Source: Candidatus Eiseniibacteriota bacterium (lineage in GTDB: Bacteria > Eisenbacteria > RBG-16-71-46). From it: DNA of 64,000 bases. A program made the translations under genes and the position numbers. A model generated the notes under the pieces. That model saw only the letters and a program-made list of their open reading frames with translations, was not told where the DNA came from and ran no database searches. This document shows, piece after piece, positions 6,980-64,000 of the stretch (positions are counted from its first letter, which is position 1; the number at the start of each line of letters is the position of its first letter). The DNA lies in the NCBI GenBank assembly GCA_035691845.1, contig DASSIN010000066.1:9032-73031 (forward strand), read 5' to 3'.

Positions 6980-8146
6980 CTACGCTGCGAAGTGCTTGAT
7001 GATCACGCCCGCCACACCTGCAGCGGCGATCACGATCGGCTCCGGCAGCCTCCTGCCCCACGTCAACACGGCGAATGCGGCGACAGCGATGGCGATGGTC
7101 GGGACGTCGATCACGGCCCGGCGGCCGAGAACGATCACGGCGCCCGCGATGGCGCCCGTCGCCGCGGCCGTGACACCGCTCACGACTGCCTTCAGCACGC
7201 GATTGTCGGCGAAGCGGCGGTAGTGCGGAGCGGGGATGATCACCAGCAGATAACACGGGAGAAAGACGCCCAATGCCGCCGCGACAGCTCCCGCCGATCC
7301 GGCGACGAGATAGCCGATGAACGCCACCGTGATGACGACCGGACCGGGCGTGATCATCGCAACGGCCACCGCATCGAGGAACTGGCGCTCGTCGAGCCAG
7401 TGGAACCGACCCACCACGCCACCATGGAGGAACGGAACGATCGCAAGTCCGCTGCCGAACACGAACGCTCCCGCCTCGGCGAAGAAGCCTGCGAGACGGA
7501 CCAGCACGCGAGGATTCTGCGCTCCGTGAAGACCGGTCGTCAGCCAGCTGGTGGCACCGAGGGTCATGGCGGCCACGTGGCGGCGGGGCGGCGCCTTGAC
7601 CAGCCATGCGACCAGGCCGCTGGCGATGAAGACCCACACGATCTCGGTCGCCGTCCATGCGGTGATCACCGCATTGACGGTGAACAGCGCCCACAACATG
7701 CGATCCCGTCCCAGCGTCAGGCGCACGAGCTTCCAGGCGCTGCGCGCGATGATCGCGATCACCGCCGCGGCGACGCCGTAGAAGACCGCCTGCATCCATG
7801 GCAGGCCACCCGCGCGCACGTAGGCCCACGAGAGCGCGAGAACCATGGCGAATGACGGCAGGATGAAGGCCACGGCGACCGAGGTGGCCCCGACGATTCC
7901 GGCGCGAACCCAGCCGAGATAGATGGCCAGTTGCGCGGCCAGCGGCCCCGGCGCGAGCTGGGCGAGAGCGAGGCCTCGAACGTAGTCGTCATGCGTGATC
8001 CACCGGCGGCGCTCCACCAGGTCGCGCTGCATGTAGCCGACCAGCGCCACCGGGCCTCCGAAGCCGAACGTACCGAGACGCAGGAAATACACGAGCAGGT
8101 CTCGAAGGCCGCCGGCGGCGCGAGCCTCGCCCGGCGTGGATGACAT
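6980..8146 (-). CDS. chrA: Chromate transporter ChrA (CHR family, fused two-domain form)
   Basis: LVYFLRLGTFGFGGPVALVGYMQRDLVERRRWIT and second-half FLHGGVVGRFHWLDERQFLDAVAVAMITPGP motifs; ATG 8146 (TTG 8164 alternative overlaps upstream stop). Confidence 0.9.
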   Translation of the reverse strand: MSSTPGEARAAGGLRDLLVYFLRLGTFGFGGPVALVGYMQRDLVERRRWITHDDYVRGLALAQLAPGPLAAQLAIYLGWVRAGIVGATSVAVAFILPSFAMVLALSWAYVRAGGLPWMQAVFYGVAAAVIAIIARSAWKLVRLTLGRDRMLWALFTVNAVITAWTATEIVWVFIASGLVAWLVKAPPRRHVAAMTLGATSWLTTGLHGAQNPRVLVRLAGFFAEAGAFVFGSGLAIVPFLHGGVVGRFHWLDERQFLDAVAVAMITPGPVVITVAFIGYLVAGSAGAVAAALGVFLPCYLLVIIPAPHYRRFADNRVLKAVVSGVTAAATGAIAGAVIVLGRRAVIDVPTIAIAVAAFAVLTWGRRLPEPIVIAAAGVAGVIIKHFAA

Positions 8147-8160
8147 CGCGGCACGCCGCT

Positions 8161-9150
8161 TCAATGGGGCCGCATGATCCGCAGGACGGGCCGACCGCCG
8201 ACGCTCTGCAGCGGGAAGTAGACGAGATGCGTTCGCGGATCGACGGCGACCGTGTGAGCGTGGCGCATCGAGATGTCGCCAAGGTGGTGCAGCGTGGCGT
8301 CGCGTTCGGAGAATACGGACACGGTTCCGGATTCCGACGCGACGTACAGCCGCCGCAACACGGGATCGAAGGCGAGGACGTCGGGATTCCCGCCCACCCC
8401 GTGCCGTTGCACGACCTTCCAGCGCTTCAGGTCCACGACCAGCAATGTCGCGTCGTCCTCGTTTGCGACGAACAGCAGTTCTGCTGCCGGATCCAGCGAC
8501 ATGCCGTGAGGATGCGCTGCGCCCTCGAGCCGATGCCGCGCCGTCACGCGATCGCTGCCGGGGTCGATCTCCACCACCTCGTTGCGGGTTTGAACGGCGA
8601 CGAGCACGCGGCCCGAGCGAGGGTGGTAGAGGGTGTTGCCGGCTTCTCCGCCGAGTGACACGCGCCCGAGCACGCGATCCGACCGGCCATCGATCACGAG
8701 CTCGCCGCCTCCAGACTCGTCGGAGACGTACACCTTGCCTGTGCCCGGCGCGTACGCGATCCCGTCCGGAAACCCGATCCGTCCCAGGCGGGCGAGGACT
8801 CGCAGCGTGCGCGCATCGATGACCGCGACATGACGCGCTCCGGTCACCGAGGCGTAGACCTTTCCCAGCTCCGGAACGGCGCAGACGCCGGTGATGCGGG
8901 GCAGATCACTCACCCTGCCAGCGACCCGCCGCCTGGCGATGTCGAACACCACCAGCTCGTCCGCGTCCATGTGCGAGAGATAGAGACGGTTCGCGCTCGA
9001 ATCGAGGCTCTGGTAGTCGAACCGCACCGCGGGACCCGGCAACGCCACCTCGGCCACGCGTTCGAGCGCGGGCGTTCTCGGCGGGTGTGTGACCGCTGGC
9101 AGAGTCGCCGCGCTCGCGATCGCAAGCGCGCCGGCCAGCGACGGGATCAT
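8161..9150 (-). CDS. YVTN-family beta-propeller repeat protein (secreted), ChrJ-like
   Basis: Signal peptide MIPSLAGALAIASAATLPAV; repeated ...RLYVA/KVYVS...V.VID blades; start ATG overlaps upstream stop (ATGA). Confidence 0.75.
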   Translation of the reverse strand: MIPSLAGALAIASAATLPAVTHPPRTPALERVAEVALPGPAVRFDYQSLDSSANRLYLSHMDADELVVFDIARRRVAGRVSDLPRITGVCAVPELGKVYASVTGARHVAVIDARTLRVLARLGRIGFPDGIAYAPGTGKVYVSDESGGGELVIDGRSDRVLGRVSLGGEAGNTLYHPRSGRVLVAVQTRNEVVEIDPGSDRVTARHRLEGAAHPHGMSLDPAAELLFVANEDDATLLVVDLKRWKVVQRHGVGGNPDVLAFDPVLRRLYVASESGTVSVFSERDATLHHLGDISMRHAHTVAVDPRTHLVYFPLQSVGGRPVLRIMRPH

Positions 9151-10976: not shown

Positions 10977-11438
10977 TCATCGCACGGCGCCTTCGGGACT
11001 GGCCTTGCCGACCGTCTCCTGGCAGTAGGCGTAGAGCGCGTCGTAGACGATCCATTCGGCCCGGTTCAGCTCGTGATCGTCCTTGAACCCGAGATGTCGG
11101 AAGCCCGTGGCGATGGCCTTGAGCCCCGCCGACTCGCGCTGGTTCCACAGCGTGTTGTCGGTGTCCGCGCCATTGACGATGCGGGCGAGCAGCACGAGCG
11201 CCGGATCGCCGGTCAATCCGTGTTTCTTGACGATCGCGTCGAACGAACACTCCTTGCCGTGATGCCCGAGCTCGACGCCCGTGACGTCGTACGGGATGGC
11301 GCCCTCGCGCTCGGCCGTCGCCATCACCTGATCCGACGGCACGAACAGGAACTCGGCCGCCGGATCGACGAACCTGCGGATGAGCCACGGGCAGGCGACG
11401 CGGTCGACCTTGACGTGCTCGCGGGTGATCCACTTCAT
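10977..11438 (-). CDS. Stand-alone ChrB C-terminal-domain protein (ChrB_C paralog)
   Basis: MKWITREHVKVDRVACPWLIRRFVDPAAEFLFV parallels RARVWVTRRGVLVDRIASAWLIRRFVDPAARFRFV in the adjacent chrB; ATG 11438 overlaps chrB stop (ATGA), AGGAGTG RBS. Confidence 0.7.
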   Translation of the reverse strand: MKWITREHVKVDRVACPWLIRRFVDPAAEFLFVPSDQVMATAEREGAIPYDVTGVELGHHGKECSFDAIVKKHGLTGDPALVLLARIVNGADTDNTLWNQRESAGLKAIATGFRHLGFKDDHELNRAEWIVYDALYAYCQETVGKASPEGAVR

Positions 11439-12370
11439 GGCAGCACTCCTTTCGGGACATGTGGCGTGACCCCTCGGAACGAGGCGTACAGGCAGTCGAA
11501 CAGCGGCCATCCTCTTTCCAGCCGGGCGTGGTCGTCGGCTTCGATGGCCGCGAGCCCGGCGATGAAGCTGGCGAGCCCCGGACCCTCGGCGCGGCCGTAC
11601 TTGCCGTCCTTGAGGTCCAGGTCGTGGACGGTCTCGGCCATCTGGCGCAACGCCGTGTCGCGCGGCTGCAGGCGCGCCGTCAGCGTCTCGAACGTGCAGC
11701 GATCCCCCTCGTGCGTGAACTCGCCGCCCGCCATGTCGAAACGCAGCTCGCCCGGCGCGATCGCATCGCCCGGGGCCACGAACCGGAACCGCGCGGCCGG
11801 ATCGACGAACCGCCGGATGAGCCAGGCACTCGCGATCCTGTCCACCAGCACGCCGCGGCGCGTCACCCACACGCGCGCGCGGTAGTCGTCGGGCGCGGGC
11901 TTCGCCGGCGACGCCGCGGGCGCTGCGGCGGCGGGCGGCGCTTCCTGCGCCAGGCGCCGGCGCAATCGGGCGAGACGCGCGCCGGCCGTGCGGCGATCCG
12001 ATGGCCGCGCGCGCACCGTGCCCCGGGCGATGCCCTCGAGCCGCTCGATCTGGGCGAGCGCCTGCCGGCGGCGGCGCTCGAGTTCCCGCGCGTGGCCGCG
12101 ATCGAGCGCGATGTGGTCGCGCGCGTCGAGCCACAGCACGACGCACGGCATCGCCTTGCCGCGCCGGCGCTCGAGCTGCCGCCCGGCCGCCGCCATCGCC
12201 GCGCGCGCGCCGGGGCCGTCGGGCAGCGCGTAGACGCCATCACGCACCGCCACCGCGCCGATCCGTCGCAACGACCTGCGGACGTGGACGCGGTCGGCGG
12301 CCAGGCGTGGCATGCGCTCCGCGATCAGCGCGATCCATCCGGCCGATGCCGCCTCGGATTCAGCTGCCAT
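11435..12370 (-). CDS. chrB: Chromate resistance regulator ChrB (N-terminal ChrB domain + ChrB_C domain)
   Basis: 311 aa; N-terminal DGVYALPDGPGARAAM.., C-terminal WLIRRFVDPAARFRFV motif; first gene of co-directional coupled operon. Confidence 0.75.
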   Translation of the reverse strand: MAAESEAASAGWIALIAERMPRLAADRVHVRRSLRRIGAVAVRDGVYALPDGPGARAAMAAAGRQLERRRGKAMPCVVLWLDARDHIALDRGHARELERRRRQALAQIERLEGIARGTVRARPSDRRTAGARLARLRRRLAQEAPPAAAAPAASPAKPAPDDYRARVWVTRRGVLVDRIASAWLIRRFVDPAARFRFVAPGDAIAPGELRFDMAGGEFTHEGDRCTFETLTARLQPRDTALRQMAETVHDLDLKDGKYGRAEGPGLASFIAGLAAIEADDHARLERGWPLFDCLYASFRGVTPHVPKGVLP

Positions 12371-12484: not shown

Positions 12485-13558
12485 ATGGCTGTCGCCCGGA
12501 GACCGACGCGCACCCGGCTCGAGGTGCTGCTCGGGGCGCTGGCGTTCGCGGCCAGCGTCCCCGCCGGCAAGTTGCTGCTGCGCGGGCTCGCGCCGCTGGC
12601 GTTGTCCGGCGGGCTCTACCTGGCCGCCGGCGCGTTGTGCGCTGCGCTGCTGGCGCTGCAGTCCAGGCGCCAGCGACGCGAGCGCAACCGGCTGCAGGGC
12701 CGCGAGTGGTGGTGGCTGCTGTTGGCGATCGCATTCGGCGGCGTGCTCGGGCCGCTCGCGCTGTTCCACGGCCTGCGTCTGACCAGCGGCCACGTGGCCG
12801 GCCTGCTGCTGAACTTCGAGGCGGTGTTCACGGTCGCGCTCGGCGCCGTGCTGTCGCGCGAGCGCGTCGGCGCTCGAGGCGCGCAGGGCATCGGGCTCGT
12901 TATCGGCAGCGCCGTGCTGCTCGCCGCCACGGGCGAGCCCCACGCGTCCGCGGCCACGCGTCCGCTCGGACCGCTGCTGATCGTGGCGGCGTGCGCATGC
13001 TGGGGGCTCGACAACAACTTCACCCAGCACATCAGCCTGCGCGATGCGCGCCAGATCGTCGCGCTCAAGGGACTCATCGGCGGGGCCGCCAGCGTGTCGA
13101 TGGCGGCCGCGTTCGGCCAGCTCGGCGGTTGGTCGGCCGGCACCATCGCGGCCGTGGTGTGCGTGGGAGCCGTGTCCTACGGGGTCTCGATCGTGCTGTT
13201 CATCCGCGGCCTGCGGGCGCTGGGTGTCATCCACACCGGCGCGCTGTTCGCGCTCGCCCCCGGGTTCGCGGCCGTGTTGTCGTGGCTGGTGCTGCGCGAG
13301 CCCATCCATGCCGGCGCGCTGCTCGCCCTCGCCGGCATGACCGGCGGCGCCCTGTTGCTGGCGACCGATGTCCACGCGCACGAGCACGTCCACGAAGCGC
13401 TGGAGCACGCCCACCCGCACGAGCACGACGCGCACCACCAGCATGCGCACACGCCCGAGCAGCTGGACCAGGCGCCGCATGCCCACTGGCACCGCCACGA
13501 GCCGCTGGTCCACCGCCATGAGCATTCCCACGACCTCCACCACCGCCACCGGCACTGA
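12485..13558 (+). CDS. EamA/DMT-family transporter with ~60-aa His-rich C-terminal tail
   Basis: 10 predicted TM helices, two EamA halves; tail HAHEHVHEALEHAHPHEHDAHHQHAH...HAHWHRHEPLVHRHEHSHDLHHRHRH. Confidence 0.8.
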   Translation: MAVARRPTRTRLEVLLGALAFAASVPAGKLLLRGLAPLALSGGLYLAAGALCAALLALQSRRQRRERNRLQGREWWWLLLAIAFGGVLGPLALFHGLRLTSGHVAGLLLNFEAVFTVALGAVLSRERVGARGAQGIGLVIGSAVLLAATGEPHASAATRPLGPLLIVAACACWGLDNNFTQHISLRDARQIVALKGLIGGAASVSMAAAFGQLGGWSAGTIAAVVCVGAVSYGVSIVLFIRGLRALGVIHTGALFALAPGFAAVLSWLVLREPIHAGALLALAGMTGGALLLATDVHAHEHVHEALEHAHPHEHDAHHQHAHTPEQLDQAPHAHWHRHEPLVHRHEHSHDLHHRHRH

Positions 13559-15214: not shown

Positions 15215-16597
15215 CTAGCGCAGGGCGGCGTGGAGGAACAGCAGCGTCGAGGCCGGCGTGTCGCCGTAGTCGTCGTGCAGCGCGGCGGGAATCCGCGACA
15301 GCGTGCCCGCGCCGCCGATCCCGAGCGCCACGTGATCGCGGCGCAGGAAATCGTAGCGATAGCCGGCCGTGAGTTCGCCGACCTCGAACACCTGACCCGC
15401 GCGCGGATCGGGCGCGAGCAATAGCTCGTCCTTGGCGACCCGTTCGAGCCGCACGAACATGGTGTGCCGCTCGCCGCTCTGCAGCGCGCCCTCGGCCGTG
15501 TACGCATCGAGCGTGCGGCCCGGGGGGTTGCGGTTCCGTCCCCATGCCACCATGCCCTCCCACCGCCCGGTGTCGCCCCACGTGCCGTCGTACATCGCCG
15601 AGGCGGTGATGCGGTCCTGGTTCACGTCGGGCTCGAGCTGCTCGGGGCTGTGGATCCGCCCGTAGCTCGCCTGCAGCGCCCAGCGGTCGGTGGGATTGAC
15701 CGACAGCCGGAACGCATGCGAGTCGAGCTTGGGCGTTTCGACGTTCCAGCGGTTCTGGTCCGGCTCCCGCCCGCGGAACACGGACGCCTCGAGCTTGACC
15801 CGCGCGATCACGGCGCCGGCCGTCAGCACGCCGTAGGTGATGTGCGTCGAATCGAGCCAGTGGTGGGTGATCGGCGCCACCGGGATGTTCATTCCCGAGA
15901 AGCGGTGCATGAACGCCGGCGGGCCGAGCGCGGGCTCGCCCGGCAGGCCGCCGTAGACGAACAGCGAGCGGTCGCCGCTCGCCACGCTGTACGTGCCGGC
16001 CAGCTCCATGAACAGATCGTGGGGGTGCTGGCGGTCGATCAGCGGCGTGACCCCGTCGGCGGTCTCGCCGGTCTGCAGCAGCAGCGGGTAGCCCTTGCTC
16101 CCGATCGTCGCCGGCTCGAGCGACAGCATCGATCGCAGGCCGAACGTGCCCACGCCCAGCGGCCGCTGCGCCATCGCCATCGCCATGTTGCTGCTGAAGC
16201 TCCGATTGTCGCCGCGCGGCCCGCCCTGCTCGTCGTACACGCCGTCGGCGAAGCCGTGCAGCATCAGCATCCACGGGCCGCGCATGACGTGCACGCCCTC
16301 GTGGCGCGCCGCCTCGGGCTGCCACGAGGTGCCGGACGCTTCGCGCGTCATGGCGTATGGCCCCAACATGCCGGTCATCGGCATCGCGCCCATGTCCATA
16401 CCGGCCATGTCCATGCCGCCATGCGCCGCGTGGTGCGTCGGCGCGGCGTGCGCGTGCGCCGCAGGCATCGCGCCGTGACGGGCGGTCGAATCGGCCGCGG
16501 CGGGATGATGGTGATGCATCTGGGCGTGGGCGGCGGTGGGGAACGACAGCGCCGCGATCACGCCGGCCAGGGCCCATCGTCGCGGAAGCCCACTCAT
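15215..16597 (-). CDS. Putative outer-membrane beta-barrel protein with His/Met-rich N-terminal segment (metal-binding; CopB/PcoB-like architecture)
   Basis: Signal peptide MSGLPRRWALAGVIAALSFPTAAHA then QMHHHHPAA..HAHAAPTHHAAHGGMDMAGMDMGAMPMTGM; remainder rich in alternating beta-strand pattern, C-terminal aromatic; ATG 16597 overlaps cytochrome stop (ATGA). Six-frame ORF 15215..17419 N-terminal extension is an out-of-frame readthrough of the cytochrome gene. Confidence 0.6.
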   Translation of the reverse strand: MSGLPRRWALAGVIAALSFPTAAHAQMHHHHPAAADSTARHGAMPAAHAHAAPTHHAAHGGMDMAGMDMGAMPMTGMLGPYAMTREASGTSWQPEAARHEGVHVMRGPWMLMLHGFADGVYDEQGGPRGDNRSFSSNMAMAMAQRPLGVGTFGLRSMLSLEPATIGSKGYPLLLQTGETADGVTPLIDRQHPHDLFMELAGTYSVASGDRSLFVYGGLPGEPALGPPAFMHRFSGMNIPVAPITHHWLDSTHITYGVLTAGAVIARVKLEASVFRGREPDQNRWNVETPKLDSHAFRLSVNPTDRWALQASYGRIHSPEQLEPDVNQDRITASAMYDGTWGDTGRWEGMVAWGRNRNPPGRTLDAYTAEGALQSGERHTMFVRLERVAKDELLLAPDPRAGQVFEVGELTAGYRYDFLRRDHVALGIGGAGTLSRIPAALHDDYGDTPASTLLFLHAALR

Positions 16598-17403
16598 GGC
16601 TGCTCCCTGACGAGTTGCGCGTGAACACCCGGGGACCGCAGCCACGAGACGTACGCCCACAGCGCCGGAACGTCTCCGGGTCGGATGTGCTTTTCGAATG
16701 CCGGCATCTTCACCGCCTCGCGGCGCAGGAAGAACGCGGCGAACGGATTGGTCTCGAAGCGCCGGCTGACGCCACGCTCGACCCACTGCCGGAACTCGGT
16801 GCTGTCGCGCACCAGCTCCCGGAAGTCGCTCCCGTCCCACGATGGGATGCAGTCCTTCCACGCGCCGGGGTTCTGGCGCGCCAGGCGCCCGCCCGGACCG
16901 TGGCAGCCGACGCACCCCAGGTCCTCCGCTCGCTGCAGTCCCAACGCGACCAGCGAATCGTCCGGCTCCGGCATGCCCGATGCGGCCATCACGTAGGCCA
17001 CGAGGTCGTCGATGTCCCGCTCGCGCAGCCTGCCCTTGAACGCCGGCATCTTGAGGGCACCGCGCTCGCGGTCGGCCCGCCACGTGACGCTCGCCGCCTT
17101 CCTCGTGGTGACGCCGTCGTGGATCCACTGGTGGATGTCGTCCGGCGTCTTGGCGAACATCATCACGTCGTCGGCGAAGTTGGGGACGGTCTTGTCCATG
17201 CGACCGGGATTGTTCGCCCCGTGCAGCCCCCCGGCGCCATGGCAGCCGAAACAACCGGTGCGCTCCGCCACCCGCCGGCCGCGTTCGGCCGCGGGCAGAT
17301 CCGGGCGCCGCGCGAACGCCACCGCCCCCACCACCACGACCATGCCGACCGCCACTCCCGCCATCCATCGCATGCTCGGCTCCCGTAGGAGCGCGCCCGT
17401 CAC
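16594..17403 (-). CDS. Diheme c-type cytochrome (two class-I cyt c domains)
   Basis: Two CxxCH (CFGCH, CVGCH), each followed by a ...KMPAF... Met-ligand segment, an internal duplication; N-terminal TM/signal anchor MRWMAGVAVGMVVVVGAVAF. Confidence 0.8.
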   Translation of the reverse strand: MTGALLREPSMRWMAGVAVGMVVVVGAVAFARRPDLPAAERGRRVAERTGCFGCHGAGGLHGANNPGRMDKTVPNFADDVMMFAKTPDDIHQWIHDGVTTRKAASVTWRADRERGALKMPAFKGRLRERDIDDLVAYVMAASGMPEPDDSLVALGLQRAEDLGCVGCHGPGGRLARQNPGAWKDCIPSWDGSDFRELVRDSTEFRQWVERGVSRRFETNPFAAFFLRREAVKMPAFEKHIRPGDVPALWAYVSWLRSPGVHAQLVREQP

Positions 17404-17431
17404 CGGACGCGCTCCGCATGGTGGACGCTGG

Positions 17432-17824
17432 CTACCGGCTCGCGACCTGCACGGCGCTGGCTTCGATCGCCTTCGTTCCGCTGCGCGTCAGCAGCTCGCC
17501 GGTCACGGCGACGGTCTTGCCGGCCATGCCCTTCAGAGAGTTGTAGGGGTCGGCGTTGTCGTGGTCGAGCGTCACGAGGTAGAGCGTGCCGTTGCTCGTG
17601 AGCAGCCCCATCGGCATGCCCTGGTTGAGACACTTGGTGGCGCACGACACGTGGTCCGCGCCGCGCGCTTCGTGCCCCAGCCAGCAGCCCATGTCCACCA
17701 CTTCGCCGGTGATGGTCTTCCGCACCACCTTTTCGCCCGGCATGTGGTGGCCTTCGTGGGCGATGGCGGGGGCGGCGAAGCCGAGAACGGCCAGGGCGGC
17801 GAACATATGGGTGATGCGGGTCAT
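17432..17824 (-). CDS. Small secreted His/Cys-containing protein (possible periplasmic metal-binding protein)
   Basis: Signal peptide MFAALAVLGFAAPAIA followed by HEGHHMPGEK; motif DMGCW..H..C...C; high GC3; co-directional 28 nt upstream of cytochrome gene. Confidence 0.55.
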   Translation of the reverse strand: MTRITHMFAALAVLGFAAPAIAHEGHHMPGEKVVRKTITGEVVDMGCWLGHEARGADHVSCATKCLNQGMPMGLLTSNGTLYLVTLDHDNADPYNSLKGMAGKTVAVTGELLTRSGTKAIEASAVQVASR

Positions 17825-17951
17825 GAGAACTCCTCCGTTGGAAGTCGAGGATCCGCGCCGTGGCGCGGATGACAGGCGTGAGTCGGATGGGCGCCATCAC
17901 GCCCGGACCGGCACGCGGAAACACCGCCTGCCTGCCGGGCGGGCAGCCGGA

Positions 17952-18341
17952 TCAGAGTCGGAGGATGGAAGCGGGAGCTGGAGGGGATTCGGAGGGGATT
18001 GGAACGCGCGCCCTCGCGCCATCTCCGCCGGGGACGAGCGCGGGCGCTACCTGAGCCGTCGGGAGCGGCGCGGCGGGCGGGGCCGGAACGTCGGGCGCCG
18101 CCGCTGCCGGCGCCCACGTCGAGCAGCACATCGAGGTGTGCGCGCACTCGCCGGCGGGCTTGTCGTCACAGCCATCGGGATCCGCGCAGCCGTCGTGGCC
18201 GGCCGCGGCCGCGCAATCGGCGTGGGCCGCTGCCAGCGCCGGGCCATCGCACGCGCCGCCGCGTGCGGCGCACGCTTGCGCGAACGCGAGCATGGCGAAC
18301 ACCAGCACCGCGCCGACGGTCCGGTGGGCGGCGTCGAACAT
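17952..18341 (-). CDS. Small Cys-rich secreted protein, hypothetical
   Basis: Signal peptide MFDAAHRTVGAVLVFAMLAFAQACA; 11 Cys in ~60 aa (CDGPALAAAHADC...GHDGCADPDGCDDKPAGECAHTSMCC); very high GC3 in this frame; low complexity Pro/Ala tail. Confidence 0.4.
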   Translation of the reverse strand: MFDAAHRTVGAVLVFAMLAFAQACAARGGACDGPALAAAHADCAAAAGHDGCADPDGCDDKPAGECAHTSMCCSTWAPAAAAPDVPAPPAAPLPTAQVAPALVPGGDGARARVPIPSESPPAPASILRL

Positions 18342-18500
18342 GCGCGGGCGGTAGGTCACGCGAGAATCATCGGCACAACCACGCAGCGGGTCAAGGCGCA
18401 GGCCCGAATCGTCCGGCCCATGTCAGGGGTTCCGGCGATCGTCCGCTCGTGCATGCGGATTGCACGCGTTGCGAACGCGCGCCGTATCAGCAGGTCCTGG

Positions 18501-21347
18501 TCACCGGATCAGGGCGACGCGTCGTGTGACGCTCCTGCCGTTCACGCTCGCCCGCACGAAGTACACGCCCGGTTCCGTGCTCCGGCCACGATCGTCGCGT
18601 CCGTCCCAGACGAGACGCCGCGCGCCCGGCACCGTGGCATCGAGCAGATGGCGCACGCGGCGACCGCGGCTGTCGTAGATCGCGACCACGCCGCGGGCCG
18701 GTCGGGCGGTGACGAGGTCGATCGTCGCCGCTCCGGCCGCGGGGTTGGGCTCGACCTGCAGCGCGATGCTCCCTCCCGCATGCCCGTCGGGGACGTCGGA
18801 GGCGGCGTTCACCGTGAGCGTGGCGGCGTGGCTCGTCACGCTGCCGCAGGCGTCGGACACGACGCAGTCGTAGCTCCCGCTGTCGGCCGGGGCGCACGTG
18901 AAGATGTCGATGAGGTCGCGCTGCGATCCATCGACGTATGAGCCCCATGGCGTGAAGCCGTCCACGAGCGGCACGCCGTCCTTGCGCCACGCGTAGGTCG
19001 CCGCTTCGTAACCGGTCGGCACCTCGACGTCGAACCCAGCCGTCTGCCCCGCCGTGATGGCCTGTGACGCCGGCTGCGACCAGATCCACGGCGTCCCGGT
19101 TTCGAGGAAGCGCGCCATGCCCGGGGAATCGATCGCGAACGATTCCGCCCAGGTGAAATCCCCGCCCGCGATCATCTCGCCGTTGAAGCCGACGAGCGCC
19201 CGGCCGGAGTTGTTGACGCCCACGTCCACGGCGCTCCACGCCGATCCGTTCCAGCGCGCGGCGTTCATCGCGCTCACGCCGTCGGCCGAGGTGAAGGTGC
19301 CGAGCGCGTACAGCGAGCCGCCGTCGGCCTTGAGTGCGTACACGGTGCCGTTGCAGCCCCCGCCCGGCGTGGAGCCGACCGCCACCCACGCCGATCCGTT
19401 CCAGCGCGCCACGTGATGGACCGCGCCCGTGCTGGACGACGTGAACGCCCCGCCCGCGTACGTGCTGCCGTTGTAGCGCTCGACGGCGAACACGGTGTCG
19501 TTCAATCCGCCGCCCAGCGCGCTCCACGGCGTGAACCCCGGGCCGACGGTGCTCTGGGTCCAGATCGCCACGCGGCTGGCCGCGCCGCCGTTGGCGATCG
19601 TGAATTCGCCTCCCGCCACCAGCGCGATGTTGCTGGAGTTGACGGTGTAGGCCTTGAGCGCATGCACGGCGGCGTTCATGCCGGTGCCCATCGGCTGCCA
19701 CGCGGAGCCGTCCCAGCGCGCCACGCGCGTGACCGCGGTGGCGCCGGAGGTCACGAACGCGCCGCCCGCCACCGTGGCGCCGCCGAACTGCTCCAGCGCC
19801 AGCACGGTGTTGTCGAAGCCGCTTCCGAGCCGCGACCAGGCATTGAACGGGAACACCGGCGATTCACTCCACAGCGCCACGTGATTCGCATCGAGCCCGC
19901 CCGCATGGGTGAAGCCGCCGCCGACGATCAGGTTGTTGCGCGTCTGTCCCTGCACCAGGTCGGAATAGCCCTTGAGCGCGTAGATCGGCGCATCGGTGCC
20001 GGCGCCCAGCGCCGCGAGCTGGTTGCCGTCCCAGGTGCACAGGTAGTAGTCGTCCGCGGCGTTGATGTGCTGCGAGAAGTATCCGCCCATCGCCAGCTTC
20101 GCTCCATACGTTCCAAGCGCGTACACGTGGAGCGGCGCATCAGGCGCCACCCAGCTGGCGCCGGTCCACTGACCGACGTCGTAGAGGTCCGTCGTGCCGC
20201 CGCGGTGGAAGTCGCCGCCCGCGAACAGCGTTCCGCCGTAGCTGCACAGCGCCCTCACGTACAGGGACGTGCCCTGCAGGTTGGAGTCGATGCCCGACCC
20301 CACATCGGTCCACGACGAGCCGTTCCACAGCGCGATGCGATTCAGGCTGCAGCCCAACTGCGTGTAGAAGTCGCCGCCGGCGTAGAGCAGGCCGCCCGAT
20401 TCCCCCAGCGCGAACACCGAGCTGCACAGGCTGCCGGCGCTCTGCCAGCTCGTTCCGGTCCAGCGCACGACGCCGGCGGCCGCGGGCTCGGCCACGCCCA
20501 CGAACAGGTCGGTCCCGTGGGTCGCCATCGCGAGCACGGGTTGGGCCGGCCCGTTGCCCGAGCCGTCGTCCACCGCGCTCCAGGAGGCGCCGTCGTAGCG
20601 GGCGATGAATTTCGCATGCGCCGCGCCCGCCCCGGTGAACGCGCCGCCTGCGTACAGGGCGTTGTTGGCCACGGTCAGGCAGTAGACGGTCCCGGAGGTC
20701 CCGCCCCCCGCCAGTGGCTGCCAGCTGGTGCCGTTGAAGGCGGCGATGTTCGAGGGGGTGCCGATGTGCCCCGCGGCGATCAGGGTGCCGCCGTAGGTCG
20801 TGAGCGCGAACACCGTGTCGGGGGCGCCGGTCAGATAGCCACGATCCAGGTCGTTCCAGCTCGCGCCGTCCCACAGTTCGATGTCGGCGGTGTGGAGGCT
20901 GGACGTTCCGCCGGCCACGAGCTGCCCGTTGTAGACGGCGAGCGACGACACGCTGGCCGAAGGGCCCGCACCCAGCGCGCGCCACACGAGCCCGTCCCAC
21001 GTCGCCACGTGACGGGCCGCGACGCCGTTGATGGAATGGAACGATCCACCCACCACGAGCAGCGGCGCCGCCGGCCCCGCGCCGTCCGGGTCCCACACCT
21101 GCATCGCGCGGATCGCGCTGTCGGCGCCGACCACCGTCGACCCGAGCGGCCCCGCGACCCATTGCGAGCACTGCGATCGCGCGCGATGCGCGGTGCCGCC
21201 GAGCGCGACCGCCGCCAGCAGGCCGATGATCGCCCCGCGCCGGGCGCGGGCGCATCGGGATGGAGGGAATCGAAGCACCGTCCCACCTCCGGAAGGGGGA
21301 CCGGGCGAGCGCAGGCAGCCCGTCTCCCGCGCTCGATTGTGACGCAT
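18501..21347 (-). CDS. Secreted tandem beta-propeller repeat protein (delta-60/kelch-like repeats) with Ig-like domain and T9SS-type C-terminal sorting domain
   Basis: ~15 repeats of W(D/N)G.SW..(L/V)G.G....V.AL..Y.G.L.AGG.F; C-terminal VEPNPAAGAATIDLV..VAIYDSRGRRVRHL...WDGRDDRGR..PGVYFVRASVNGRSVTRRVALIR; start uncertain (signal-like segment after residue ~35). Confidence 0.8.
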   Translation of the reverse strand: MRHNRARETGCLRSPGPPSGGGTVLRFPPSRCARARRGAIIGLLAAVALGGTAHRARSQCSQWVAGPLGSTVVGADSAIRAMQVWDPDGAGPAAPLLVVGGSFHSINGVAARHVATWDGLVWRALGAGPSASVSSLAVYNGQLVAGGTSSLHTADIELWDGASWNDLDRGYLTGAPDTVFALTTYGGTLIAAGHIGTPSNIAAFNGTSWQPLAGGGTSGTVYCLTVANNALYAGGAFTGAGAAHAKFIARYDGASWSAVDDGSGNGPAQPVLAMATHGTDLFVGVAEPAAAGVVRWTGTSWQSAGSLCSSVFALGESGGLLYAGGDFYTQLGCSLNRIALWNGSSWTDVGSGIDSNLQGTSLYVRALCSYGGTLFAGGDFHRGGTTDLYDVGQWTGASWVAPDAPLHVYALGTYGAKLAMGGYFSQHINAADDYYLCTWDGNQLAALGAGTDAPIYALKGYSDLVQGQTRNNLIVGGGFTHAGGLDANHVALWSESPVFPFNAWSRLGSGFDNTVLALEQFGGATVAGGAFVTSGATAVTRVARWDGSAWQPMGTGMNAAVHALKAYTVNSSNIALVAGGEFTIANGGAASRVAIWTQSTVGPGFTPWSALGGGLNDTVFAVERYNGSTYAGGAFTSSSTGAVHHVARWNGSAWVAVGSTPGGGCNGTVYALKADGGSLYALGTFTSADGVSAMNAARWNGSAWSAVDVGVNNSGRALVGFNGEMIAGGDFTWAESFAIDSPGMARFLETGTPWIWSQPASQAITAGQTAGFDVEVPTGYEAATYAWRKDGVPLVDGFTPWGSYVDGSQRDLIDIFTCAPADSGSYDCVVSDACGSVTSHAATLTVNAASDVPDGHAGGSIALQVEPNPAAGAATIDLVTARPARGVVAIYDSRGRRVRHLLDATVPGARRLVWDGRDDRGRSTEPGVYFVRASVNGRSVTRRVALIR

Positions 21348-21399: not shown

Positions 21400-23745
21400 C
21401 TAGTGGCCGGGTCGGAACGATCGCAGCCGCAGGGCGTTTCCGATCACCGAGACGGAGCTGAAACTCATCGCGGCGGCGGCGATGATGGGGCTGAGCAGCA
21501 GGCCGAAGAAGGGGTACAGCACTCCGGCGGCGATGGGCACGCCCAGCGCGTTGTAGACGAAGGCGAACAACAGGTTCTGCCGGATGTTGGACATGGTGGC
21601 GCGGCTGAGTTGGCGCGCCCGCACGATGCCGCGCAGGTCGCCCTTCACGAGCGTGACGCCCGCGCTCTCCATGGCGACATCCGTGCCCGTTCCCATCGCG
21701 ATCCCGACGCGAGCCCGGGCGAGCGCGGGCGCGTCGTTGATGCCGTCCCCCGCCATCGCCACCGACCGCCCTTCCGACTGGAGCTGGGTCACGATTTCCA
21801 GCTTGCGATCGGGAAGAACCTCGGCGTGCACCTCGTCGATGCCGAGCTGTCGCGCGACGGCTTCGGCCGTGGTGCGATTGTCGCCGGTGAGCATGACCAG
21901 ACGCAGCTTCTGTGCGTGCAGCTGCCGAATCGCCTCCGGCGTCGTCTCCTTCAGCGGGTCGGCCACGCCGATGACGGCGGACACCCGGCCTTCGACGACG
22001 AGGAACATCGCCGTCTGCCCTTCGGCGCGCATGCTCCCGGCCGCGTCGTTCAGAGGTCCCGCATCGGCGTGGACGTCGGCGAGCAGCGCGGCGTTGCCCA
22101 GGGCGAGCGGCTTGCCGTCGATCACGCCCTTCACCCCCTTGCCCGTGAGCGCGATGAAGTCGGCCGCATCCGTCAATGGCAGGTGGCGGGCCTCTGCGGC
22201 CGCGACGAGCGCCGCGGCGAGCGGGTGCTCGCTGCCACGCTCGAGGCTGGCCGCGAGCCGAAGGGCCTCGTTCTCCTGCCAGCCGGGCGCGACGGTGATC
22301 CCCGCGAGCTTGGGCTTGCCTTCCGTCAGCGTGCCGGTCTTGTCGAACACCAGCGTGTCCACGGCACGCAGCGTCTCGATCGCCTCGGCGTTCTTGAACA
22401 GCACGCCCATGGTGGCACCCTTTCCGGCCGCCACCATGACGGACATCGGCGTCGCGAGTCCGAGCGCGCACGGACAGGCGATGATGAGCACGGCCACCGC
22501 ATTGACGATGGCGTACGCCATCCGTGGCTCGGGGCCGGCGATGGCCCAGACGATGAATGTCACAACCGCAATCCCCACCACCGTCGGGACGAACCACGCG
22601 GACACCTGATCGGCCAGGCGCTGGATCGGTGCGCGGCTCCGCTGCGCTTGCGCGACCATCTGGACGATTCGCGCCAGCAGCGTGTCGGCGCCCACCTTCT
22701 CGGCGCGCATGACGAGCGCCCCCGTGCCGTTGATGGTCGCGCCGACGAGGCGGGCCCCCGGCTCCTTCTCGACCGGGATCGCTTCGCCGCTGACGAGCGA
22801 TTCGTCCACCGAGCTGCGTCCTTCGAGCACGATGCCGTCCACCGGCACCTGCTGTCCGGGCCGCACCCGCAGCCGATCACCCACGTGGACCTGCTCGAGC
22901 GAAACGTCGCGCTCCGTGCCGTCCTGCTCGATGCGGCGCGCCGTGGTCGGGGCCATGCGGAGCAACGCCCGGATGGCGGCGCCGGTCTGGCTGCGCGCCT
23001 TGAGCTCCATCACCTGACCGAGCAGCACCAGCGTCACGATCACGGCCGCCGCTTCGAAGTAGGTGCCGACGCGCCCGGTGGAATCGCGGAACGAGGCCGG
23101 GAACAGCTCCGGCACCAGCACGGCGGCCACGCTGTAGAGGAACGCCACGCCCACCCCGAGGCCGATCAGTGTGAACATGTTCGGGCTGCGATGGACGATC
23201 GATTCCCAGCCGCGTACGAAGAACGGCCAGCCGCCCCACGGCACCACCGGGGCCGCGAGCAGGAACTCGACCCAGCCGATCGCCGCCATGGGAACGACGC
23301 GGTGCAGCGGCTGCCCGGGCAGGAACGAGCCGAGCATCATCAGGACCAGCGGCGCGGTCAGGGCTGCGGAGATCCACAGCCGCCGGCGCATGTCGACCAG
23401 CTCCGGGTTCTCCTGATCCGCGAGCGAGATGGTTCGCGGCTCGAGCGCCATGCCGCAGATCGGGCAGCTTCCCGGCCCGCTCCGCACGATCTGCGGATGC
23501 ATGGGGCAGGTGTACTCGGTGGCCGCCGCGCTCGCGGGACGAGCCGTGCGCTCCGGAGGCGAGAGGTAGCGGTGGGGATCGGCCGTGAACTTCGCCAGGC
23601 ATCCCGCGCAGCAGAACCGGTACGTGCGACCTTCGAAGCTCGTCTGGTGCGGGGTGTCGGCGCGCACGCTCATGCCGCACACCGGGTCGCGCTCGACCGC
23701 TGGATCGCGCTGAACGACCGGCAGGGAATGTGTCCTCATCTCCAT
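21400..23745 (-). CDS. copA: Copper-translocating P1B-type ATPase with N-terminal TRASH/YHS-type and CPxH-zinc-ribbon metal-binding motifs (no classical HMA domain)
   Basis: CPC transmembrane motif ([13 protein letters not shown]), DKTGTLT phosphorylation site, [10 protein letters not shown] hinge, HP (SEHPLAAAL); N-terminal VCGMSV..x20..FCCAGC and CPMHPQ..x8..CPICGM; ATG 23745 (MEMRTHS). Confidence 0.9.
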
Positions 23746-23810: not shown

Positions 23811-26495
23811 TCACGGCGTCGGAATCGGATCCCGCATCGTCTCCCAGCCCACCACCAGCCGGACCGCGAGCGCGTGTCCGCCCGGCGCAATGAAGATGAA
23901 GCCTCTGCCATCCGGTCGTACCACGTATTCGCTGCGACGATCGTTGCGCAGGTAGCGATCCTCGAACAACGGCACCGGCCGTGACACGGCGATCGGATCG
24001 CCCGGCACCACGCGCGCGGCCATGAAGTGCGTCGGGGATCGGAAGAACACCTCGCGGCCGTCCGCGGACCAGCGCGGCTCCGTGCCTCCGCCGGACGACA
24101 CCTGCACGCGGCCGCCACCCTCGATCGGCTTGAGGTAGATCTCCTGCTCTCCCGTCTCGTCGGAGCTGTAGGCCAGCCACCGGCCGTTCGGCGAAAGCGA
24201 CGGCGACAGTTCCGACGCGGGCGTCTGCACCAGCCCGCGCCGCGTGCGGCGCCCGTCGGTCGAGACCATCAGGATGTCTTCGTTCGTCGTCGGATTGTTC
24301 TCGCGATACACGACCCAGTTGCCGTCGGGCGACCACGCGAGCGGAAATGTGAACAGTGGCCCGGCGACCAGCGTGTCCACCACGCCCGAGCCGTCGGCGT
24401 TCCGCACCAGGACTTCGAACGTGCCGCGCCGGAAGCCGGCGTAGGCGATGCGGCGACCGTCCGGAGACCATACCGGGTCGATGTTGTCGGGGCCGAACGT
24501 GACACGGGAAAGCACGTTGCGCGCGAGATCGAGGGTCCAGACGTCCCGGCCGGTGTCGCCCGGCAGCGCGACCGCGAGCCGCGTTCCCGATGGCGAAATG
24601 GCGGGTCGGTCGTAGGCCCGGGCTTCGACCGGGAGCGACACCGCGCGACCGGCTCGATCCACGTCCCAGAGCGGATTGGTCCCCGCCGAGGGCGGCGAGT
24701 CGAGCCACGCGAGCAGACCGTTGCCCGAAACCGCGAAGTCCCTCGCGCCCGAGCCGACCGATGAGCCAAGCGTCGTGAGGCGCTCGGCCGGGCCGCGACG
24801 CCGGGCGCCCGCCGGATCGAACGGCAGGCGGTACAGCGCGCCGTCCTGGCCGCGAAACAGCAGCTGGTCCCCGACGAAGCGCACCTCGGTCGCGCGCTCG
24901 CCGATCGGGTGAGTCGCGCCGGTGGCGAGCTCGATCGTGACGAGGGGGCCGGATCCCATTTCGGACGTTGCGGCGACCGCGATCAGACGGCGACCGCCCG
25001 GCAGGGGTTCCGCGCTCACCAGGCTGTACGCCCCGTCGTTCTCGACGGGAGCCGCCACGCGGGTCGGCGCGCCCCCGTCGGCGCTCACCCGCAGGATGCC
25101 CCGAAACGGGCGGAATCGGACGGAGTAGTAGATGAAGCCGTCGCCAGCCCACGCGCCACCGCTGATCAGCCCGCCCGGGTCCATCGAGCCGTCATCGGTG
25201 CCGCGAATGCGCTCGGCCGCACCATCGGGGAGGCGCGCCTTCCACAGCGCGCCGTGCGCCGCGAATGCCAGCCAGCGGCCATCGGGCGAGAAGAACGGCC
25301 TGTCTGCGCCGTCGCTGGCGGGGATGGTCACCGTCGTCGTCGAGGACAGATCCCGCACCATCGCCACCCTCCGCCCGAGGCTGTCGAGGCCGACGAACGC
25401 GAGTCGTGTGCCGTCCTCCGACAGCGCCACGCCGGCGGGCGCGACGCGCCCCACGTCCGACGAGGACGGGACGAGGGTCGCGACGAGCGGCGCGGTGCGA
25501 TGGGCCGAGGGAACGACCGAGCGCCGACCGAGCGCCCAGACGACGACCAGCAGCGCGGCCAGAACGAGCGCGGCCACGATCATCGTCCCACGCGATGGCA
25601 CGGCGCGCGGCGCGCCCGGCTCTTGCGCCGGCGCGGCGAGCACTTCGCCGAGTTCGAGTCGCGCGTCGCCGATGTCGCGCAGGCGCTCGTGGGAATCCTT
25701 GCGCAGACAGCGCGCCAGCAGCTCGCGCACGCGTGCGGGTGTCGCCGCCGGCAGCGCGCTCCAGTCGGGCTCGCGTTCGAGGATGCTCGCGATCAGGTCG
25801 GACACCGTCCCGCCCTGGAACGCCTGACGTCCGGCCAGGCACTCGTAGAGCAGGCAGCCGAACGACCAGATGTCCGACCGCCGGTCCACGACCCTGCCCC
25901 GGGCCTGTTCGGGGCTCATGTAGGCGGCGGTGCCCAGGATCATGCCGGCGCTGGTCCCGCCATAGGCCATGGTGGGCGAGGCGCTCAGGCTCGCGTCGGA
26001 GCCCGCGGCCCCAGCCGCACCGCCCGTCGCGAGCCCGAAATCGAGCACCTTGACGCCGCCCCGCCCCGTGATCATGACGTTTCCGGGCTTCAAGTCGCGG
26101 TGCACCACGCCGCTCTCGTGCGCGGCCTCCACGCCGGACGCGATCTTCACCGCGATCTCCAGCGCCTCGCGCACCGGCAGCGGTCCGCGCGCCAGCCGCG
26201 CGGCCAGGGTCTCCCCCGCGACGAACTCGAGCACCAGATAGCGCGCCCCCTCGACCTGTTCGAGGCCGAAGATCCCGGAGATGTTCGGGTGATTCAGCGA
26301 CGCGAGCAGCTTCGCTTCGCGTTCGAACCTGGCCAGGCGGTCGGGATCGGTCGCGAATGCGGCCGGCAGGGCCTTGATCGCCACGTCGCGGGACAGGCGC
26401 GTGTCATGCGCGCGGTACACCTCGCCCATGCCGCCGCTGCCGAGCGGCGCGACGATCTCGTATGGGCCAAGGCGGGTGCCCGCGGCCAGAGTCAT
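23811..26495 (-). CDS. Ser/Thr protein kinase with TM segment and periplasmic TolB-like (PD40) beta-propeller
   Basis: [22 protein letters not shown] glycine loop, [10 protein letters not shown] catalytic loop, DFG, SPEQ; [18 protein letters not shown]; C-terminal repeats [10 protein letters not shown] / [10 protein letters not shown] / [10 protein letters not shown] / [10 protein letters not shown]. Confidence 0.85.
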
Positions 26496-26594
26496 CGCGC
26501 CACTGTGCCACAGACGGGTGAGGGTCCAGAAGGACGAGGGCGTCACCGAACGGGCATGGGGGAGGCCCGACGTACGGCGCGGGCGCTGCTCAGC

Positions 26595-60578: not shown

Positions 60579-60690
60579 CGGTCGAATGTACCACGGACGT
60601 TGCGGGCGGCAGCCCGCGCCTGGGCCGTCCGTGACTGCCATTGTGGCGGCCGGCGGGACGCCCGAGCGCCAGGTGCTACCCTCCGACCCC

Positions 60691-62770: not shown

Positions 62771-64000
62771 ATGCATCGCCCGACCAGGGCCCACGGGGCG
62801 TCTGCACGCGCGCTCGGGCATCGAGCGGGCGCACGCGCGCCGCAGCTCGCGACGTTCGCGGCGCTCGCGCTCGCGCTGACGTGTGGAAATGTGACGCGCG
62901 CCCACGCGCAACAGATCCCGCTCGATCCCAAGAGCATTCCGCAGTTCGTCGAGCCGTTGCCGATACCCTCGGTGTTGAACGGCACGACGACGACGCCGGG
63001 CTCGCCGCTCGTCGTCACCATGAGCGAATTCCAGCAGAAGCTGCTGCCGGATGCGTTCTACGCCGGACTCGCGGCGCCGTACGACGCCGGCAGTTACGTG
63101 TGGGGCTACAACCACAGCTATCCGGGCCCCACGATCGTCGCCACGCGCAACGTGCCGACGCACGTGCGGTACGTGAACGATCTCTACAACCCGGCGGGCG
63201 GGCCGCTGTACCTGCAGGCCACGGTGCCGGTGGATCAGACCATCCACTGGGCGGATCCGCTCGGCACGGGCATGAGCTTCGAGCGCTACCTGGGTCCGGT
63301 GCCGGCGGTCGTGCATCTGCACGGCGGCGAGGTGCCATCCGCGTTCGACGGTGGACCCGATGCGTGGTGGACGCCGGGGTTCGCGTACCACGGGCCGGGT
63401 TTCGTGACCGACACCTACACCTATCCCAACGCCCAGCAGGGCGCCTCGATGTTCTATCACGATCACGCGCTCGGCATGACGCGGCTGAACGTCTACTCCG
63501 GCCTGGCCGGGTTCTACATCCTGCTCGACCCCTCGATCGAGCCGGCCCAGCTGCCCGGCGGAGCGGCCGACACGCCGCAGGACCAGTACGGGCATTCGTA
63601 CCGGATCGGGCTCGCGCTGCAGGACCGTGTGTTCGACACGAACGGCCAGCTCCTGTTCCCGAGCGACAGCGACAACCCGGACGTGCATCCCTACTGGACG
63701 CCCGAATTCTTCGGCGACGTCATGCTCGTGAACGGAAGATCGTGGCCATACCTGCGGGTGGAGCCGCGGCGCTATCGCTTCGAGTTCCTGGACGGCTCCA
63801 ACGCGCGGTTCTACGAGCTGCGGTTGATGAACCAGGCCACCGGGCGGCCGGGCCCGGCGTTCTGGCAGACGGGCGGCGACCAGGGGCTGCTGGACGCGGC
63901 GGTGAAGCTGAACGATCCGGTCGTGTCCAAGTCGCCGCGGCTGCTGTTCGCGCCGGGCGAGCGCTGCGACGTGGTGATCGACTTCTCCGGGTTCGCCGGG
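62771..64000 (+). CDS. Multicopper oxidase (CotA/bilirubin-oxidase-like), 3'-truncated by window end
   Basis: Open frame from ATG 62771 to 64000 (410 codons, no stop; not listed in the ORF track); Tat/Sec-like leader; copper-ligand motifs HWADP, HLHGGEV, MFYHDHALGMT. Confidence 0.8.
   Translation, partial: MHRPTRAHGASARALGHRAGARAPQLATFAALALALTCGNVTRAHAQQIPLDPKSIPQFVEPLPIPSVLNGTTTTPGSPLVVTMSEFQQKLLPDAFYAGLAAPYDAGSYVWGYNHSYPGPTIVATRNVPTHVRYVNDLYNPAGGPLYLQATVPVDQTIHWADPLGTGMSFERYLGPVPAVVHLHGGEVPSAFDGGPDAWWTPGFAYHGPGFVTDTYTYPNAQQGASMFYHDHALGMTRLNVYSGLAGFYILLDPSIEPAQLPGGAADTPQDQYGHSYRIGLALQDRVFDTNGQLLFPSDSDNPDVHPYWTPEFFGDVMLVNGRSWPYLRVEPRRYRFEFLDGSNARFYELRLMNQATGRPGPAFWQTGGDQGLLDAAVKLNDPVVSKSPRLLFAPGERCDVVIDFSGFAG

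Follow-up and report, generated by a model that had tools for sequence, protein, structure and literature searches.

The passage of copper across the outer membrane is among the steps of bacterial copper homeostasis that are most poorly understood, and the locus described here raises the question of whether a barrel protein without any annotation may provide a route for it. The locus lies in a Candidatus Eisenbacteria genome, on a 64,000-nucleotide stretch of contig DASSIN010000066.1 (hereafter the window; G+C content about 71%). Four co-directional open reading frames (ORFs) on its minus strand encode a Cys-rich protein, a 130-aa secreted protein (p130), a diheme cytochrome c, and a 460-aa barrel, and this cassette is a genuine four-gene operon of that genome. 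The barrel probably lets copper pass the outer membrane by a route not described so far. A fuller reading, held tentatively and at slightly less than even likelihood, is that the cassette is a periplasm-to-outer-membrane copper-handling operon in which the barrel would act as an outer-membrane channel selective for copper, served in the periplasm by partners for capture and redox chemistry.

The cassette and its barrel family

The last gene of the cassette (15215..16597, minus strand, as are all four genes) encodes the 460-aa barrel. A signal peptide (...AHA/Q) is followed by 53 residues that include 10 His and 9 Met (residues 26-78; 16364..16522), which is the N-terminal His/Met cluster named in an original prediction made for this locus from the DNA letters. 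This tail was predicted to be disordered, with a predicted local distance difference test (pLDDT) score below 50. It was kept as a compositional feature in both close and diverse homologues, with a median His plus Met content of 25.5% in the tails of 100 close homologues and 18% in those of 98 diverse ones, compared with about 7% in the barrel domain. The predicted structure showed 16 strands, short periplasmic turns, and long extracellular loops, with the N-terminus placed in the periplasm, and this is the 16-stranded porin fold of the OmpF/OprP type, including loop L3. No match to any Pfam or NCBIfam family, including the porin families Porin_1, Porin_4, and Porin_O_P, was obtained for the window barrel, and the sole porin-family trace was a sub-threshold match of one relative to the OmpL-like bbp2 model. 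A search of the PDB with a profile of 34 homologues (E up to 10) produced two chance matches only and no PcoB chain.

Loops L2 (residues 160-195; 16013..16120) and L3 (residues 218-252; 15842..15946) were the two longest loops and the most conserved parts of the barrel (alignments A1 and A2). Both were supported by the alignments and by motif counts, and their numbering is the one suggested by the strand order of the model. The near-invariant motif of L2 was GYPLLLQTGET...DRQHPHD, while that of L3 was PGEPALGPPAFMHR...APITHHWLDSTH (consensus PGEPALGPPxFMHR...APxxHHWxDSTH), and these motifs were found in 85-95% of 216 near-complete family members. The two loops hold six near-invariant His (H191, H193, H231, H245, H246, and H252), and Asp, Glu, and Met residues are conserved there too. 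Cys is absent from the whole window barrel, and the median number of Cys in the barrel domain of the 216 members was zero. By analogy with the 16-stranded porins OmpF and OprP, L3 would stand at the position of the constriction loop.

A hypothetical protein from a metagenome-assembled genome (MAG) of Candidatus Eisenbacteria matched the window barrel with 100% identity. More than 8000 word-sharing homologues were found, all of them significant, and an exhaustive hidden Markov model search returned representatives of 4220 clusters built at 50% identity, of which 1145 had E up to 1e-30. A motif scan with one genome per species confirmed the barrel in at least 583 species-representative genomes. 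Its carriers were Eisenbacteria, Acidobacteriota, Alpha-, Beta-, and Gammaproteobacteria, Planctomycetota, Verrucomicrobia, Chlamydiae, Elusimicrobiota, and Omnitrophota, with a barrel identity of 50-78% across phyla; in these carriers the identity to the window barrel was still 50-60%. Three plasmids of cultured Sphingobium and Pontibacter encode the barrel, labelled as a hypothetical protein, and culturable hosts with candidate members include Sphingobium, Pontibacter, and Bradyrhizobium. Such members are QQ987_RS19865 on a plasmid of Sphingobium baderi SC-1, A0W33_RS20300 of Pontibacter akesuensis, and a Bradyrhizobium/Nitrobacter homologue. No description of the family was found in the literature searched. 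Homologues were also seen in MAGs labelled Limnocylindrales, Dormiibacterota, and Bacillota (L008, L015, and L051), groups in which no classical outer membrane is expected; these could be cases of mis-binning or horizontal transfer.

The gene directly upstream of the barrel gene encodes a diheme class I c-type cytochrome (16594..17373; 259 aa from the ATG at 17373). It contains the motifs CFGCH and CVGCH, each followed by MPAF, and an N-terminal hydrophobic anchor or signal peptide. The protein matched the Cytochrom_C family PF00034 with 47.1 bits (cut-off 21.3) and the Cytochrome_CBB3 family PF13442 with 40.9 bits (cut-off 27), and its two CXXCH motifs, distal Met, and Cytochrom_C profile are those of the diheme class I c-type (c4/CcoP-like) cytochromes. 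It scored 63.5 bits against the CcoP equivalog TIGR00782, below the cut-off of 179.95, and is thus CcoP-like only. Both CXXCH motifs were kept in 119 of the 120 listed homologues. The ATG at 17373 is a likelier start than the alternative GTG at 17403 because GGGAG stands 8 nucleotides upstream of it and the homologues are about 264 aa long.

The stop codon of the cytochrome and the ATG of the barrel overlap as ATGA (16594..16597), as the original prediction had it, and GGGAG is located 7 nucleotides upstream of the barrel ATG. The further claim that this overlap implies a 1:1 complex is not established by it: ATGA overlaps are a common feature of operons and are not unusual alone. No terminator-like site was found within the cassette in a terminator scan, and a consensus promoter scan gave 1 site against 0.2 expected. 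This promoter-like site (TTGACC-17-GATGAT; 18366..18394, minus strand), a pattern match only, lies just upstream of the first cassette gene. Some short inverted repeats that precede the cassette resemble chance matches in GC-rich sequence, and an Rfam scan of the whole window gave no match.

The protein p130 (17432..17824) has a mature HEGHH N-terminus, and the 130-aa periplasmic protein with HEGHH and Cys that had been predicted is therefore present and belongs to a conserved family. This family comprised 573 matches at 75-85% identity, with the HEGHH N-terminus and C47/C61/C65 invariant; the full Cys/His cluster consists of C47, H51, H58, C61, C65, M70, and H88. The protein has the features of a small secreted five-stranded oligonucleotide/oligosaccharide-binding (OB) barrel and matched no Pfam or NCBIfam model, including those of CusF and CopI. 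As such, p130 is a candidate periplasmic metallochaperone. The label DUF5666, carried by one p130 homologue in UniRef, was not reproduced by Pfam on the window p130, and the literature on it was uninformative.

The first gene (17952..18359, GTG start) encodes the small secreted Cys-rich protein of 135 aa. The second secreted protein of the original prediction is thus real and conserved, but it contains 8 Cys and not 11. It carries a CCSTWAP motif and a conserved C-terminal IPIPxESPP..ILRL, and no Pfam or NCBIfam match was obtained. The codon-position signature of this ORF was weaker, of an intermediate kind; it is regarded as a real gene because it is conserved at the same position in two related loci (L088 and L089, 47-48% identity) with seven invariant Cys (C30, C37, C58, C64, C72, C78, and C79). 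Both small ORFs are conserved genes. In six Acidobacteriota loci (L044, L056, L057, L061, L068, and L069), the gene immediately preceding that of the barrel encodes another small secreted protein rich in Cys and His, with invariant GPHPCH, SCH, DCC, and a C-terminal IDHVPL, and no Pfam match. Homology between this protein and the window Cys-rich protein was rejected (hhalign probability 0.2%).

Copper genes, fused domains and proposed function

A gene for a CopA-type P1B ATPase (21400..23745, minus strand) lies 3 kb upstream of the cassette on the same strand, and Pfam showed the N-terminal YHS/TRASH and HMBD domains of the TRASH-type CopA that had been predicted. The window CopA is likely the copper source for the periplasmic module. 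Across 89 independent barrel loci, CopA was counted by tblastn because single-linkage clustering of neighbours merged p130 and CopA via HMBD-containing proteins. A CopA homologue more than 45% identical to that of the window was present in 23 of the 89 loci (within 1 kb in 19) and in 13 of the 52 loci having at least 3 kb on both sides. CsoR, CopC, and CopD each recurred in 5 barrel loci and CusA in 4. One locus (L001) showed the order Cus-type resistance-nodulation-division (RND) system (OEP, CusB, ACR_tran), HMBD protein, barrel, HMBD P-type ATPase, 128-aa protein, and cytochrome c, while in L004 two P-type ATPases flank the barrel. The neighbours of the barrel on the Sphingobium plasmid were a MerR regulator, a glutaredoxin, a DUF305 protein, and a heavy-metal ATPase.

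These neighbourhoods bear on an alternative in which an ordinary porin, unspecific or serving another metal (Zn, Ni, or Ag), shares an operon with the cytochrome and owes its copper link to hitch-hiking on resistance islands. Its fold is that of general porins, some barrel loci are without metal genes, and His-rich tails can also bind Ni or Zn. However, the cross-phylum conservation is extreme for a porin, with invariant loop motifs, the CopA, CsoR, and CopCD neighbours are specific to Cu/Ag, and the barrel was fused independently to the copper-specific CopI, YtkA, and Met-rich modules. This explanation is considered highly improbable, and the original prediction's caution that the barrel might be a generic porin was not borne out, the family being strongly linked to copper genes.

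About one in five of the 150 best-scoring cluster representatives contained extra domains. In the 50 longest of them, a monoheme cytochrome c was fused in 4 (P0123, P0151, P0197, and P0249), a cupredoxin in 3-5, and YtkA in 3, with single cases of YHS, DUF2911, and AhpC/redoxin. One of the fused cupredoxins was of the CopI type (NCBIfam E 1e-27) and one was rusticyanin-like (E 4e-14). Seven representatives (P0166, P0174, P0202, P0203, P0226, P0246, and P0258) had, fused at the N-terminus, a Cys-rich module that is duplicated and about 100 residues long (G.Y.CC.K..C..C....C.C......GKGVCG.C..GW..G.G); it had no Pfam or NCBIfam match and looks like an undescribed metal-binding domain. The fused modules were N-terminal, on the periplasmic side, with few exceptions, and were then followed by a His/Met linker; some relatives carried very long Met-rich tails. 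A few long relatives with kinase or receiver domains are read-through artefacts. The copper reading is supported by the CopA/CsoR/CopC/CopD/Cus neighbours together with the fusions to CopI, rusticyanin-like, YtkA, and Met-rich modules, and by the strong constraint on the barrel, whose invariant residues cluster in L2 and L3.

A gene for the window-type diheme cytochrome immediately preceded the barrel gene only in the window, L010, L088, and L090, and was found nearby in L001. The junction of the two genes was overlapping or nearly abutting in L088 and L090, and the gap in L010 was about 45 nucleotides if the Met preceding the signal peptide is the start. In the lists of the top 120 matches, apparent shared contigs, matched by their length, numbered 19 for barrel and cytochrome, about 16 for barrel and p130, and 18 for cytochrome and p130, and because of this sharing the cassette is taken to be common in the Eisenbacteria-like clade. 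The cassette recurred in L010, L088, L089, and L090 (in L089 without the cytochrome), and the close barrel relatives of L005, L087, and L089 were without the cytochrome; p130 is a more constant partner of the barrel than the cytochrome in this clade. Non-orthologous c-type cytochromes of other classes adjoin the barrel in L033, L063, L072, and L078. Orthology between the window cytochrome and the fused cytochrome domains was rejected, the similarity being that of class I in general (E at least 0.008). Since the adjacent and fused cytochromes are non-orthologous, the link to a one-electron carrier appears to be recurrent and independently acquired, and not universal. The predicted co-occurrence of barrel and cytochrome was accordingly upheld in part, by the adjacency in a subclade, by other cytochromes elsewhere, and by 4 fusions among 50, but the cytochrome was absent from most loci of the family.

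These partners could also point to a copper-centred redox porin, Cyc2-like in function, in which the six-His cluster would hold, inside the barrel, a redox-active copper that exchanges electrons with a periplasmic cytochrome c or cupredoxin. A metal (Cu, Fe, or Mn) located at the outer membrane or beyond it would be oxidised or reduced by such a porin. The HxH and HH motifs are reminiscent of multinuclear copper sites, which is a lead only. The recurrent fusion or adjacency to monoheme cytochrome c, CopI- or rusticyanin-like cupredoxins, and diheme c4-like cytochromes fits this explanation, and the cytochrome-fused members share the Cyc2 architecture (PMC10654088). On the other hand, the window barrel is without a heme motif or Cys, most family members have only the His/Met tail or modules without a redox role, the surrounding genes belong to copper homeostasis and not to respiration, and convergence of the six His on a single site is unsupported. 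A redox porin is therefore rated as improbable, and the same low probability is assigned to the bolder proposal that the family is an O2-independent cuprous oxidase/exporter, a heme-free Cyc2 analogue in hundreds of species, with copper bound inside the barrel by the invariant six-His/acidic cluster of L2 and L3 and with wiring to interchangeable periplasmic one-electron carriers.

Under the preferred copper-handling reading, CopA would pump Cu(I) into the periplasm, where it would be collected by the Cys-rich protein and by p130, which offers an N-terminal His cluster and a Cys/His site. The small secreted proteins would then hand the copper to the disordered His/Met tail in the periplasm. 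The diheme cytochrome, with His/Met ligation of the high-potential type, could take an electron and convert Cu(I) to Cu(II) independently of O2, after which the metal would exit through the barrel. The His- and acid-rich L2 and L3 would reach into the lumen, where they would make up a binding site or constriction selective for copper. The copper-capture role of the tail would fall in relatives to a folded copper-binding module, and cytochrome or cupredoxin partners would set the redox state of the metal. Such a system may explain periplasmic Cu(I) handling when O2-dependent multicopper oxidases cannot work.

Exporters, repressors, and CopI-type modules are found as neighbours, and for this reason an outward, detoxifying flux is favoured. 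The same channel might instead work inward, as a copper-acquisition porin that admits external copper and supplies chaperones in the periplasm, either for the building of cuproenzymes or for controlled sequestration, much as has been proposed for PcoB. A passive barrel favours downhill flux (PMC9210255), the CopC/CopD neighbours and the YtkA/FixH-type fusions resemble copper-delivery components, and the cytochrome partner is CcoP-like. Yet the commonest neighbour is an exporting CopA-type ATPase, the CsoR, Cus RND, and CopI-type modules are typical of detoxification loci, and the plasmid location is beside resistance genes, and uptake is regarded as unlikely, though with a share of the probability that is not negligible.

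Several observations count against the preferred reading. The thermodynamic objection to passive export (PMC9210255) applies to this barrel too. The pLDDT of the model fell below 50 exactly in L2 and L3, where the model is least confident, so that the lumenal placement of these loops, proposed by analogy with L3 of porins, is putative. The barrel ends in ...HAALR and not in an aromatic residue. About three quarters of the 89 barrel loci were without CopA in the DNA examined, no obvious metal genes surround the barrel in L002, and no copper-sensing regulator adjoins the window cassette. The literature searched held no experimental datum on any member of the family.

The original prediction had also drawn a multicopper oxidase into the module. 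This CotA-like (CotA/bilirubin-oxidase-like) gene, at about 62900-64000 on the plus strand, runs off the window end and contains HLHG and YHDHA motifs; it is placed outside the module because it is 45 kb from the cassette. The proposal of a metal, possibly copper, module was supported in part, by the copper-gene linkage, the fusions, and the tail, while the membership of the multicopper oxidase, the 1:1 complex, and the analogy with Mtr-type conduits were dropped.

Other genes in the window and in related loci

Between CopA and the cassette lies a gene for a 948-aa secreted protein (18501-21347, minus strand) with beta-propeller repeats, an Ig domain, and a C-terminal sorting domain of the type IX secretion system, for which no link to metals is apparent. 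Genes for two large Ser/Thr protein kinases were found at 23811-26546 and 58185-60641, both on the minus strand; the first kinase has a long extension at its C-terminus, and its gene directly precedes that of CopA on this strand. Downstream of the cassette are the chromate resistance genes ChrA (Chromate_transp) and ChrB, at 6980-8164 and 11435-12370 on the minus strand, and the region resembles a multi-metal resistance neighbourhood; ChrB_C also occurs near the barrel in L004. An EamA-family transporter (12485-13558, plus strand) ends in an unusual tail, about 60 residues long, with an extremely high His content (HAHEHVHEALEHAHPHEHDAHHQHAH...HRHRH), and an EamA gene is also located near the barrel in L087.

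A 478-aa protein without a Pfam match occupied the first or second position after the barrel in 6 loci (L034, L036, L056, and other Thermoanaerobaculia). It ends in ...VYNF, an ending typical of many outer-membrane proteins. This protein and further conserved genes after the barrel probably reflect lineage synteny.

Comparison with known systems

The window barrel shares with PcoB/CopB an outer-membrane barrel preceded by a disordered His/Met-rich periplasmic N-terminal region, and a copper-resistance neighbourhood dependent on a CopA-type pump; for both, the copper flux may run outward or inward. PcoB of E. coli is a 12-stranded barrel (PMC9210255), and the tail of Caulobacter PcoB is needed for copper resistance (PMC12509749). 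The authors of the PcoB work held that a passive barrel cannot export against a gradient and hence proposed uptake (PMC9210255). The window barrel differs in its 460 aa, in the 16 strands of its model, and in its two long, near-invariant His-rich loops, and its partners are a cytochrome c, an OB-fold protein, and a Cys-rich protein and not the multicopper oxidase PcoA. PF05275 (CopB) was not matched by the barrel at Pfam E up to 0.1, and this, with the 16 strands against the 12 of PcoB, agrees with the original view that the barrel is not a CopB orthologue.

Like CusF, p130 is a small secreted OB-fold beta-barrel with His, Met, and Cys as ligand candidates, and CusF has the same fold class and size. 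It differs from CusF and CopI in that it matched no model of either, and its metal binding is predicted only. CopI-type domains are themselves fused to the barrel in relatives. The 16-stranded porins Omp-Pst1, OmpU, and OprP were 9-13% identical to the barrel, which matched no porin Pfam family and differs from them in its far higher conservation of L2 and L3 and in its putative metal-binding periplasmic tail.

Barrel genes adjoining c-type cytochrome genes are shared with the MtrAB/PioAB conduits. MtrB and PioB are 26-stranded barrels that sheathe a decaheme cytochrome of the MtrA type. The resemblance to such porin-cytochrome conduits that was first suggested does not hold, since the window barrel has 16 strands in place of 26 and its partner is a small diheme class I cytochrome in place of a decaheme one. 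Cyc2 of Fe(II) oxidisers consists of an N-terminal heme domain and a porin of about 16-17 strands (PMC10654088), and the likeness of the window barrel to it, a porin of about that size coupled to a c-type cytochrome, is one of architecture. Four representatives of the barrel family share the N-terminal monoheme-plus-barrel architecture, and a c4-like diheme cytochrome and rusticyanin-like cupredoxins are also found as partners. The window barrel differs from Cyc2 in having no CXXCH or Cys and in its context of copper genes instead of rus/cox operons.

The outer-membrane copper routes reviewed in 2020 were general porins, the TonB-dependent OprC/NosA, chalkophore receptors, CusC, and PcoB/CopB, and that review of bacterial copper transport is without such a barrel family (PMC7558416). 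The present finding reveals a separate and very large unannotated family linked to copper pumps and redox modules. As an entity this family is well supported, real, and widespread, and it adds one more kind of copper-associated outer-membrane barrel, for which we infer a function in copper handling.

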